DNA of 47,675 nucleotides from a bacterium (Candidatus Howlettbacteria) CG_4_10_14_0_8_um_filter_40_9 (GTDB lineage: Bacteria > Patescibacteriota > CPR2 > UBA1875 > GCA-2785325), in the NCBI GenBank assembly GCA_002785325.1, contig PFMH01000047.1, positions 1 to 47,675 of the forward strand, in the 5' to 3' direction. Shown here piece after piece: positions 7,660-25,997 of this stretch (positions are counted from its first letter, which is position 1; each line of letters opens with the position of its first letter). The notes below the pieces were generated by a model. That model saw nothing but the letters and a program-made list of their open reading frames with translations, was not told the origin of the DNA and made no database searches. Made by a program: the position numbers and the translations under genes.

Positions 7660-8028
7660 ATGATTCAAATGCAGACAAGACTTAAAGTAGCAGACAACAC
7701 AGGCGCAAAAGACGTTATGTGTATCAAGGTGCTTGGCGGATCTAGGAGAAGATATGCCAGGTTGGGCGACATCATTGTCGTTTCTGTTAAGAAAGCGATC
7801 CCAAACGCCAATGCAAAAAAGAAAGAAGTCGCCCGAGCCGTTGTTGTGAGACAAGTTCAGGAATTCAGTCGAAAAGACGGTTCAAAGATTCGTTTCGATG
7901 AGAACGCCTGTGTCCTTATTACCAAAGACGGACTGCCAAGAGGAACGAGAATATTTGGGCCGGTTGCGAGAGAGCTTCGAGAAAAAGGTTATATGAAGAT
8001 AGTATCATTAGCAAAGGAAGTATTATAA
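7660..8028 (+). CDS. rplN: 50S ribosomal protein L14
   Basis: [17 protein letters not shown]. Confidence 0.97.
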
Positions 8029-24450: not shown

Positions 24451-24537
24451 GGATGGGTACCGAAGCGGCCAAACGGGGCAGACTGTAAATCTGCTGGCTT
24501 TATGCCTTCGGGGGTTCGAATCCCTCCCCATCCACCA
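24451..24537 (+). tRNA. tRNA-Tyr (anticodon GUA), long variable arm, CCA encoded
   Basis: Acceptor GGATGGG/CCCATCC, anticodon arm GCAGA-CTGTAAA-TCTGC, long variable arm, T loop TTCGAAT. Confidence 0.92.
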
Positions 24538-24710
24538 AAGCTAGGTTCTGATCTTCTGGATCAGGTTCTGGCTTTGGGAGAGTGGAGGGTAAGAACCCCC
24601 GACTCCCGTTACGCCTTCGGGCAACGCGGTGAGAATCTTTACCCGCCTGTAGCGAAGCAAAGGAGGGCCTCCCCATCCATAAAATTGAAAAAGATGGTCG
24701 AAAAGGATGT
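24538..24710 (+). ncRNA. GC-rich structured segment of unknown identity between tRNA-Tyr and tRNA-Thr
   Basis: Local GC is well above the surrounding sequence. Hairpins: CTGATC-ttctg-GATCAG (24548-24564); CGTT(ac)GCC-TTCG-GGCAACG (24607-24626); GCGGTGAG-aatc-TTTA(c)CCGC (24626-24646). The 11 nt CTCCCCATCCA are identical to the tRNA-Tyr 3' acceptor. Confidence 0.3.
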
Positions 24711-24829: not shown

Positions 24830-24994
24830 ATGGCAAAAAAAGGAGCAAGACAACTGATTACTCTAGCATGTACAAAATGCAAAGAGAGAAATTACACGAC
24901 TACAAAAAATGTAAAGAACACTACAGACAAGGTGGAACTGAAAAAGTTTTGTAAAAGAGACAGAGCGGTAGTTGCACACAAAGAAACAAAATAG
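24830..24994 (+). CDS. rpmG: 50S ribosomal protein L33 (not in the supplied ORF track)
   Basis: Hand translation gives [54 protein letters not shown] then stop. GGAAAGGA SD upstream. Confidence 0.92.
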
Positions 24995-25029
24995 TCGACT
25001 AGCTAACCGGACACCCGATTAGCTAACCT

Positions 25030-25210
25030 AGGGGTGTAGTTAAATGGTATAACGAGGGTCTCCCCGCCTGACTGAATAGGGGTATAGTTCAATGGTAGAA
25101 CGACGGTCTCCAAAACCGTTAATCCGGGTTCAAATCCTGGTACCCCTGCCAAAAGTCATATCGGGCAGGCAAAACCTTACTTAAGGGTTCGATCCCTGCC
25201 ACCCCTGCCA
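25030..25210 (+). pseudogene. tRNA-Trp(CCA)-like gene interrupted in its anticodon loop by a 107-nt insert that contains an intact tRNA-Trp
   Basis: 5' part 25030-25063: AGGGGTG TA GTTA AATGGTA TAAC G AGGGT CTCC. 3' part 25171-25210: AAA ACCTT ACTT AAGGG TTCGATC CCTGC CACCCCT G CCA. Joined they give a 74-nt cloverleaf with a perfect 7-bp acceptor and a CTCCAAA loop. The T stem has only 3 pairs. Confidence 0.5.
25078..25151 (+). tRNA. tRNA-Trp (anticodon CCA), CCA encoded
   Basis: Acceptor AGGGGTA/TACCCCT, anticodon arm ACGGT-CTCCAAA-ACCGT, T arm CCGGG-TTCAAAT-CCTGG. Confidence 0.93.
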
Positions 25211-25289
25211 GATTGAGTGCCAGTGCACACCACTGGTGATCGAGGTGCCTACGACAGTTCGGAATATATACAGATATAATGAACAAGTT

Positions 25290-25997
25290 ATGAAGAGTGA
25301 ACAAATACTAAAGTTTTTGGTTGAAATAGTAAAAGAAGCAAGTGCTTTAGTTACTGATAAATTTGAGGTAAGTCAAAAAGGAGATGCATTTGATTTAATA
25401 ACGAATCTAGATGTTGAAATAGAAGAGTTCTTAATAAAAAAGATAAATGCACAATATCCAGATTTTAGAATAGTGAGTGAAGAAAAAAACTCCAATCATA
25501 GTGTTACAGAAAATTGTTTTATTATAGATCCGATAGACGGCACTATAAATTTTACTAACAACTTGCCGCTTTGGGGGATACAAATTGCATGTGTAATTAA
25601 TTCAGAGGCAGCAGTTATTTATCTTCCAAAGATGAATGAATTATATTATGCCGATAAAAGCGGCGCTTATTTAAACGGTATAAAGATAGCTACAAATGTA
25701 GTACCGATAAAGAATACTTTATATTCTATAGATGGTACCAATAACTTACCCATAATGGAAAAGATGCGCCCTTATTCATCTGGAAGAAGGAATTTAGGTG
25801 CTGTTTGTGTAAGTATGGCTTTTGTATCTTGCGGAAGATTGCATGGTGCACTTTTTAGGAGCGATAAACCGTGGGACTATCTGCCAGGATTATGTATTGC
25901 CAAAATGGCGGGTGCTACTATCTGTGACGAACCAGGATTTCATGGTGCAGCTATGAACGAAGAATTTTTAAATATTTTAAAAGAAGCAAACAAATAA
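25290..25997 (+). CDS. Inositol monophosphatase family protein (SuhB/CysQ-like)
   Basis: IIDPIDGTINF and WDYLPG motifs. The ATG lies 11 nt after a TATAAT (25274-25279). The ORF track starts at an upstream GTG (25236) that overlaps a hairpin. Confidence 0.82.
   Translation: MKSEQILKFLVEIVKEASALVTDKFEVSQKGDAFDLITNLDVEIEEFLIKKINAQYPDFRIVSEEKNSNHSVTENCFIIDPIDGTINFTNNLPLWGIQIACVINSEAAVIYLPKMNELYYADKSGAYLNGIKIATNVVPIKNTLYSIDGTNNLPIMEKMRPYSSGRRNLGAVCVSMAFVSCGRLHGALFRSDKPWDYLPGLCIAKMAGATICDEPGFHGAAMNEEFLNILKEANK

Follow-up and report, generated by a model that had tools for sequence, protein, structure and literature searches.

Genes for transfer RNAs (tRNAs) can be interrupted in several ways. Group I introns of tRNA genes contain a P3-P9 ribozyme core, are usually longer than 200 nucleotides (nt), follow a U as the last exon base and end in a G; in bacteria they are known from anticodon loops, for example those of cyanobacterial tRNA-Leu(UAA) and of tRNA-fMet. 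Another type of exon-intron boundary is marked by the bulge-helix-bulge, in which two 3-nt bulges on opposite strands are separated by a helix of four base pairs (bp). To our knowledge, the interrupted tRNA genes so far seen in bacteria all carry group I introns, and split, permuted or multi-intron genes are a matter of archaea and a few algae. Reviews deal with the bulge-helix-bulge introns of archaea and with split or permuted tRNA genes (PMC4033280, PMC4390854), and the passage of PMC10714607 that cites Fujishima 2010 describes archaeal tRNA introns transposing among tRNA genes in Thermoproteales. Group I introns have also been placed in the tRNA genes of Patescibacteria, according to a passage of PMC12641178 citing a 2025 preprint by Nakagawa et al. 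Here we set beside these systems a locus in the Patescibacteria contig PFMH01000047.1 (the window, meaning the whole stretch of 47,675 nt that was analysed), where a tRNA-Trp(CCA) gene is split in its anticodon loop by a short cassette that itself carries a complete tRNA-Trp(CCA) gene.

A bacterial tRNA gene is here interrupted, at one exact position, by a complete tRNA gene that shares its specificity. This has happened repeatedly, in nests of up to three levels, and it points to a site-specific replacement of tRNA genes in Patescibacteria, so far undescribed, which fits none of the recombinase, transposon or intron classes tested. We think it probable that recurrent, site-specific insertion of a tRNA-carrying cassette replaces the resident tRNA-Trp, the outer halves being its slowly decaying relic. 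The literature covered, which did not include one relevant Patescibacteria preprint, contains no description of a tRNA gene within a tRNA gene. Standard tRNA finders report only the inner gene, so that relics and nests of this kind are invisible in annotation.

Layout of the nested locus

The two halves of the outer tRNA-Trp(CCA) gene, at 25030-25063 and 25171-25210 on the forward strand, are separated by a 107-nt insert (25064-25170) consisting of 14 nt, an intact tRNA-Trp(CCA) gene (25078-25151) and 19 nt. The coordinates and sequences listed for all these parts in a first-pass annotation of the window were exact on re-reading. The outer 5' half (AGGGGTGTAGTTAAATGGTATAACGAGGGTCTCC), of the resident type that we call O-type, provides the 5' strand of the acceptor stem, the D arm, the 5' strand of the anticodon stem and the loop bases CTCC. 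It matches a half-tRNA profile with E = 6.9e-10 and shares 97% identity with the 5' half of the single tRNA-Trp of L001, a related locus (relatives are given by such handles). The outer 3' half (AAAACCTTACTTAAGGGTTCGATCCCTGCCACCCCTGCCA) resumes with the loop bases AAA, followed by the 3' strand of the anticodon stem, the variable region, the T arm, the 3' strand of the acceptor stem, G73 and CCA (E = 1.7e-05; 85% identity with L001). Within the cassette, the left flank (25064-25077, forward; CCGCCTGACTGAAT) forms the 5' leader of the inner tRNA and is the same at 14/14 positions in L083, a diverged relative, while the right flank (25152-25170, forward; AAAGTCATATCGGGCAGGC) ends in CGGGCAGGC, which is kept in L083, L094 and L211. 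The inner gene, on the same strand, represents a type that we call I-type and encodes its own CCA end. It is called by ARAGORN, scores 71.7 bits as an Rfam tRNA and has all 21 stem pairs; it is identical at 74/74 positions to the inner gene of L083 and at 71/74 to the sole tRNA-Trp of L086. We take it to be, presumably, the working gene.

In the native sequence ARAGORN and Rfam report the inner gene alone. Joining the outer halves in silico, a check proposed in the first-pass annotation, yields a 74-nt tRNA-Trp(CCA) that ARAGORN calls. Its pairs number 7/7 in the acceptor stem, 4/4 in the D stem, 5/5 in the anticodon stem (one of them G-U) and 3/5 in the T stem, where A49.C65 and A50.G64 are mismatched, so that the three-pair T stem recorded earlier is real; TTCGATC and GG are present and ARAGORN still accepts the molecule. 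On a profile of 83 distinct tRNA-Trp sequences, the score is 71.6 bits for the joined outer gene and 62.3 bits for the inner gene. The minimum free energy fold of the 181 nt is a nested double cloverleaf (-61.9 kcal/mol, z = -2.0). A promoter and terminator scan at the element gave nothing convincing.

Removal of the insert restores exactly the 7-nt CUCCAAA anticodon loop, as had been observed, although the position of the junction turns out to be ambiguous by one C. With slashes for the junctions, both CTCC/...C/AAA and CTC/C.../CAAA are allowed, the left junction being GGTCTCC/CCGCC and the right GGCAGGC/AAAACC with one C in common. The interruption falls inside the anticodon, between C34 and C35 or between C35 and A36, with neither duplication nor deletion of the target. 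In the register CTC/.../CAAA the cassette ends pair flush with both junctions in eight of the nine cassettes examined. In the window this terminal helix pairs 25063-25071 with 25161-25169 on the forward strand, with one C.A mismatch and one G-U, and its 8/9 pairs make this a cassette with terminal inverted repeats. The pairing between the flanks that had first been pointed out, TGACT with AGTCA, is present in the window and lost in L083; what is conserved is the terminal helix at the ends of the insert.

As a control for chance, each of 336 tRNAs was deleted together with 0-35 nt per side and ARAGORN was asked for a tRNA spanning the resulting junction. Such tRNAs arose only around tRNA-Trp genes, and at none (0/198) of the non-Trp tRNAs. 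A chance origin of the nested structure is excluded, and in this sample the insertion is Trp-specific. An assembly chimera of two tRNA-Trp strain variants might be suspected from the metagenome source and from the nature of tRNA genes as conserved repeats across strains, but the structure is found in five separately assembled contigs from different runs as well as in the diverged L083, and analogous loci exist in unrelated metagenomes. In separate ENA and Logan assemblies, 301 bases are identical (100%) in L081, L082 and L084, and L085 has a single difference, outside the element; L083 has the same structure at 94% identity, with substitutions and insertions or deletions (indels) of its own. 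The nested locus is not an assembly artefact, and we regard the chance of a chimera as negligible.

Two tRNA-Trp types and the recurrence of the insertion

The NusG and ribosomal protein L33 sequences place the window in Patescibacteria, the latter being 100% identical to a protein named 'Candidatus Howlettbacteria' L33. Its gene, rpmG (24830-24994, forward; an open reading frame (ORF) with a Pfam Ribosomal_L33 match), lies 35 nt upstream of the outer tRNA in the gene order tRNA-Thr, tRNA-Tyr, tRNA-Thr, rpmG, nested tRNA-Trp, inositol-monophosphatase-family gene, secE, nusG, rplK, rplA. Three lineages with this order are about equidistant, at 72-77% NusG identity. L001 and L002 have one un-nested tRNA-Trp each, identical at 69/74 and 65/74 positions to the outer gene of the window and at 59/74 and 58/74 to the inner; in L086-L090 the one un-nested tRNA-Trp is 71/74 identical to the inner gene and 61/74 to the outer. 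Outer and inner gene agree at 61/74 positions. O and I are thus two sequence types, each of them the sole tRNA-Trp of a sister lineage, and not recent duplicates of one gene, which rules out tandem duplication and decay. The earlier suggestion of an insertion into a paralogue therefore holds as to the insertion and fails as to close paralogy, given the 61/74 identity and the inner type as the sole tRNA-Trp of L086.

The same comparison bears on the idea that three tandem tRNA-Trp copies decayed, or that two partial tandem duplications occurred, and that the clean junction is a coincidence. Degenerate or partial copies do occur near tRNA-Trp genes, as in the first copy of L116 and L125 and the 54-nt repeats of L187. 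Against this, outer and inner gene are of different types, the outer being closer to the functional gene of L001 (69/74); the un-nested state, which the first-pass annotation had proposed to look for, is found in relatives as a single tRNA-Trp, with no tandem complete copies and no series of decaying tandem copies. Furthermore, the same junction recurs in independent combinations and exact empty sites exist (see below). The early dismissal of tandem decay stands, and we consider such an origin highly improbable.

Far from being a one-off, the locus belongs to a recurrent family. A scan of metagenome contigs with the O-type 5' half gave at least 119 loci, with 113 ordinary genes among the matches listed, and half-tRNA profiles provided a second route to nests. 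Nested or relic loci are those of the window group, L083, L094, L211, L184, L143/144/153, L122, L120, L195 and L175, and the loop position of the insertion is identical in all of them. The cassettes measure 100-180 nt and comprise a leader, a tRNA-Trp and a trailer. The window cassette is one member of this recurrent Patescibacteria family.

The combinations of outer and inner gene vary. L094 has an O-type outer gene with an extra two-hairpin insert in its T loop, around an inner gene of a type we call X. In L211 the outer gene is X-type and the inner O-type, and the roles are indeed swapped: the outer 5' half of L094 shares 94% identity with the inner gene of L211, and the inner gene of L094 shares 87% with the outer 5' half of L211. 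L184 also combines an X-type outer gene, with 21/21 pairs, and an O-type inner gene; L143/144/153 have the same combination, with a 45-nt insert in the outer D loop. The outer gene of L122 is of a fourth type, with a 34-nt hairpin insert in the T loop. In L120 and L195 an O-type gene comes after an X-type 5' part; the L120 sequence stops inside the inner gene, and downstream in L195 no outer 3' half can be seen. The nest of L175 is triple, in that a functional O-type gene identical to that of L002 lies in an I-type gene which in turn lies in a further tRNA-like relic, and its stalks, TCCAGCAC/GTGCTGGA and TCCCGCAC/GTGCGGGA, differ by compensatory changes. The hosts of these loci belong to other classes of the phylum, with ribosomal protein L33 relatives named Gottesmanbacteria, Woesebacteria and Levyibacteria.

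Relatives found via ribosomal protein L33 supply empty sites, with rpmG followed by an intact X-type tRNA-Trp in L213, L225/226 and L227. A single base distinguishes the joined outer halves of L184 from the L213 gene, and the downstream flank of L144 is homologous to that of L225/226. The empty site reads ...GCAGTCTCCAAAACTGC... and the filled site, in L184 and L144, ...GCAGTCTC(C)/cassette/(C)AAAACTGC...; no target-site duplication was found on comparing the empty sites (L213, L225) with the filled ones (L184, L144). The comparison shows a precise insertion without duplication or loss of the target, the outer gene being the resident that was interrupted. Together with the un-nested outer-type genes of L001 and L002, these empty sites in a second lineage bear out the initial proposal that a tRNA gene was inserted into another, degenerating tRNA-Trp.

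Two kinds of cassette end can be distinguished. CCGCC opens the insert in the window, L083, L094, L211 and L184 and is also present at the corresponding position in L120; the insert ends with GGGCAGGC in the window, L083, L094 and L211. In L144, L122 and L175 the starts are TCCCAG, CCCAG and TCCAGCAC and the ends CTGGGA, CTGGGG and GTGCTGGA, respectively. In L184 the left end is of one kind and the right end of the other, which suggests that cassettes have recombined with each other. We also considered whether CCGCC of the left flank and GGCAG of the right flank might be duplicated anticodon-stem strands, in the manner of hybrid attachment (att) sites; this fits L211, L120 and L195, but neither the window nor L184.

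The surroundings of tRNA-Trp genes in the relatives offered further observations. Several of them have small GIY-YIG genes (77-119 residues; Pfam E = 1e-14 to 3e-17) as immediate neighbours of tRNA-Trp genes: at 1636-1995 in L213, at 1626-1880 in L225 and L226, on the reverse strand from about 3934 in L144, and between two tRNA-Trp copies in L116 and L125. L184 shares flanks with GIY-YIG loci yet lacks the gene, a presence/absence polymorphism as for a mobile nuclease gene. In L204 (9631-10224, minus strand) an O-type 5' half extends through CTCCAAAA, and after it come a 145-residue ORF with a weak HNH match (20.4 bits, just under the Pfam cut-off) and then a complete tRNA-Trp of another type; the outer 3' half was not found in this locus. 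About 300 nt upstream of the functional gene, L116 and L125 carry a degenerate tRNA-Trp copy of full length, in which AA has become CC, a T and a C have been gained and the TT of the T loop has been lost, giving a perfect 7-bp hairpin, CCCCGCC/GGCGGGG. We rejected this hairpin as an empty cassette stalk, since alignment to the normal gene makes it part of a mutated full-length pseudogene; in L125 the acceptor stem of the degenerate copy differs from that of the neighbouring functional gene by a compensatory pair. Finally, L187 (2045-2175, minus strand) contains three tandem 54-nt repeats, each starting with nt 1-23 of the tRNA-Trp gene that follows, and L164 (171-191) a single partial copy similar to the L187 repeat; each unit of the repeat contains, further downstream, a complement with which its D-arm sequence can pair.

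Fate of the interrupted genes and a possible route of replacement

Outer copies are damaged in many places. The T stem has two mismatches both in the window and in L083, at different bases in each. D-arm hairpin inserts are present in the outer copies of L083, L144 and L175, that of L144 replacing part of the D stem, and T-loop inserts in those of L094 and L122. The L094 outer copy has a degenerate T loop and, like that of L211, a mismatched anticodon stem; in the L122 outer copy this stem is broken. In L175 the outer 3' half is truncated, an outer copy is a mosaic that has exactly the 3' end of the inner gene, and damage in the triple nest grows outwards. The acceptor stem is complete (7/7) in the outer copies of the window, L083, L094, L122 and L184. 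Inner copies, by comparison, are intact save for one acceptor mismatch, G6.A67, in L184.

The inserts in the outer copies merit a description of their own. An insert of about 30 nt with two adjacent 6-bp hairpins sits at the same D-arm site, after GTT, in L083 (385-414) and L175 (1117-1146), and its first hairpin is homologous in the two (TCAGCCCAAGGCTGA, TCAGCCAAAGGCTGA) although the outer tRNA types differ; this insert was found neither in the window nor in the viral contigs. Hairpin-rich outer inserts of 34-47 nt lie on the reverse strand in L094 (887-933), L122 (about 7701-7734) and L144 (3565-3609). Interrupted copies seem to accumulate small structured insertions.

If the cassette replaces the gene it enters, the locus would be transcribed through from rpmG, and RNase P together with 3' trimming would release the inner tRNA as the working tRNA-Trp of the cell. 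The outer halves, as remains of the replaced gene, would have no role beyond that of a folded leader and trailer and would slowly decay. Cassettes may spread between genomes by recombination in which the conserved tRNA-Trp halves serve as arms of homology. This turnover could be helped by nucleases that cut tRNA-Trp genes, a circumstantial possibility raised by the small GIY-YIG and HNH-like genes that adjoin tRNA-Trp in relatives. The cargo tRNA might in addition be converted by the copy surrounding it, a reading to which the mosaic of L175 is relevant; such conversion would explain the swapped inner and outer types. The locus would then make a case for horizontal exchange of an essential single-copy RNA gene, in which the incomer destroys and replaces the resident in one step.

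Several observations weigh against replacement followed by decay. In L184 the outer gene is perfect (21/21 pairs) and it is the inner one that bears the G6.A67 mismatch. Between the window and L083, rpmG differs at 13/54 third codon positions, all 14 differences in the gene being synonymous, and the sequences just outside the element are unalignable. Yet the inner gene is unchanged (0/74), as is the left flank (0/14); the outer 5' half has 1/34 positions changed and the outer 3' half three substitutions and one indel. The outer halves, with four substitutions and one indel in 74 nt, have thus diverged much less than the synonymous sites of rpmG, and three of the four substitutions fall at T-stem positions that were already unpaired, with one improving an anticodon-stem pair. 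From this low divergence, in one sequence pair, it looks as if either the outer fold matters, or the 5' half and left flank (1/48 positions changed) are constrained, or the whole unit was recently exchanged. Moreover, the same cassette ends with different cargo tRNAs need an extra assumption, that of gene conversion of the cargo, and neither a mobilising enzyme nor a donor copy or free cassette was found in the 47.7-kb window or the viral contigs.

Such conservation would be understandable if the outer halves were kept for a role other than decoding, which is compatible with an origin by insertion. They could be a tRNA-like leader and trailer directing RNase P/Z, whose cuts would separate the tRNA from the rpmG message, or else a promoter, with TGGTATAAC in the D arm (25046-25054) as an extended -10 element for the inner gene. 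The near-identity of the 5' half and left flank to those of L083, next to unalignable sequence, and the complete acceptor stems of five outer copies agree with this. So does, for the promoter, the TATAAT-like box that un-nested tRNA-Trp genes of the group usually have 8-12 nt upstream, and TGGTATAAC sits 24 nt upstream of the inner gene. On the other hand, a consensus promoter scan calls no promoter there, the inner gene is kept in L144 and L175 despite a disrupted or replaced 5' half and in L195 and L204 despite the loss of the 3' half, and the low divergence could equally come from recent recombination of the whole unit. A retained non-decoding role is, in our judgement, possible but doubtful.

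Comparison with introns and mobile elements

Like group I introns of tRNA genes, the cassettes are inserted precisely into the anticodon loop, without target duplication, in a phylum rich in interrupted RNA genes. They differ in size, the insert being 107 nt, of which 74 are a tRNA, and in the lack of a ribozyme core: Rfam searches of 24990-25260 (E values up to 10) and of eight nested loci (E values up to 0.1) returned tRNA only and neither a ribozyme nor an intron. In both registers the last exon base is C where group I has U. The insert ends in C or G in the window and in A or C in L184 and L144, and most of the interrupted copies look dead. The absence of an Rfam core, the 107-nt length and the C before the junction uphold the exclusion of a group I intron already made in the first-pass annotation. 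A hammerhead core was rejected as well, as the left flank has CUGACUGA and not CUGANGA.

The likeness to archaeal introns lies in the short, protein-free inserts, several per gene, in related inserts at one site of different tRNA genes and in the pairing flanks. Unlike these introns, the cassettes have a flush helix without 3-nt bulges, a bacterial host, a complete tRNA as cargo and a position at 34/35 or 35/36. The terminal helix abuts both junctions, leaving CUC (or CUCCCC) unpaired on the 5' side and CAAA (or AAA) on the 3' side at the same end of the helix, and no bulge-helix-bulge motif was seen in the 181-nt fold or on inspection of nine cassettes.

Another alternative is that of a true bacterial tRNA intron. 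The cassettes would be mobile, protein-free, hairpin-ended tRNA introns homing to position 34/35 of tRNA-Trp; they would be cut out at the base of the terminal helix and the outer halves ligated, giving two tRNA-Trp species per locus, the spliced outer and the excised inner one, with a spliced junction reading ...GGUCUCC-AAAACCUU. Were the outer copies spliced in this manner, this would be a new kind of intron and an undescribed bacterial pathway of tRNA splicing. The exact CUCCAAA loop and the ARAGORN-accepted cloverleaf that follow from removal of the insert are as expected of an intron, and the end helix, flush with the junctions, would keep the two exon ends next to each other. Between the window and L083 the outer halves are better conserved than synonymous sites, the outer gene of L184 is flawless around a mismatched inner one, and introns are common in the ribosomal RNA genes of the phylum, with group I introns reported in its tRNA genes. 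But no ribozyme or known intron family is found by Rfam, the geometry is not that of a bulge-helix-bulge, and C takes the place of the group I U before the junction. Most outer copies are defective even without their extra inserts (L122, L094, L175, L144 and the window), that of L144 lacking a D-stem strand and that of the window having a T stem of three pairs, and the triple nest decays progressively outwards. In addition, we know of no bacterial enzyme that cuts such junctions and religates the ends, which also counts against splicing. On balance we judge a spliced intron unlikely, and continue with replacement by an inserted cassette as the preferred reading.

Integrative elements such as phages and islands also target tRNA genes, often in the anticodon or T loop, compensate for the disruption they cause by bringing a copy of the part they displace, which keeps the gene intact, and leave partial tRNA copies behind. 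The cassette is unlike them in measuring about 107 bp, in having no integrase, in bringing a whole tRNA instead of restoring the gene and in the lack of a direct-repeat core at its junctions; by eye, neither the core repeat of a tyrosine recombinase nor the 2-bp core of a serine recombinase fits there. The 107-bp element contains no recombinase gene, and its neighbours are rpmG, the inositol-monophosphatase-family gene, secE and nusG. Free-standing homing-endonuclease cassettes are described from tRNA regions, for example phage T4 SegB (PMC2988022, PMC13096335). The GIY-YIG or HNH-like genes that adjoin tRNA-Trp in relatives, as in L204, resemble these; the window cassette differs in having no nuclease gene, and no GIY-YIG or HNH relatives were found among the ORFs of the 47.7-kb window. 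With miniature inverted-repeat elements, non-autonomous transposons that form hairpins, the cassette shares small size, terminal inverted repeats and the lack of coding capacity for a transposase, and it is set apart from them by the absence of target-site duplication, a single specific target, a functional cargo and the lack of another copy of its flanks anywhere in the window.

Wider searches for the cassette gave little. The exact 22-mer combining the left flank and the start of the inner gene has no match in the metagenome contigs. The viral contigs contain neither the inner-type tRNA nor the nested signature; the O-type pattern matches only ordinary un-nested phage-type tRNA-Trp genes in them, and the 83 matches to the right-flank 15-mer, none of which is beside a tRNA-like T arm, are attributable to chance.

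Some minor features of the gene neighbourhood may be added. The inositol-monophosphatase-family gene of the window (25290-25997) lies between tRNA-Trp and secE. Downstream of the nest, L083 is unrelated to the window, and L001 and L002 also differ, which would place a rearrangement breakpoint directly at the 3' end of the outer tRNA. Upstream, tRNA-Tyr and tRNA-Thr are separated by a G+C-rich spacer of 173 nt (24538-24710) with a stable fold (-61.8 kcal/mol, z = -2.0); the corresponding spacer of L086 has only 88 nt. In the spacer, 12 nt from the 3' end of tRNA-Tyr (24523-24534) recur in direct orientation as CCTCCCCATCCA (24668-24679). The same layout, a tRNA followed after about 100-130 nt by a repeat of its 3' end, is seen after tRNA-Trp in L126 and L135, where the repeats are 19-21 nt long, and looks like the remnant of integration at the T loop or 3' end.

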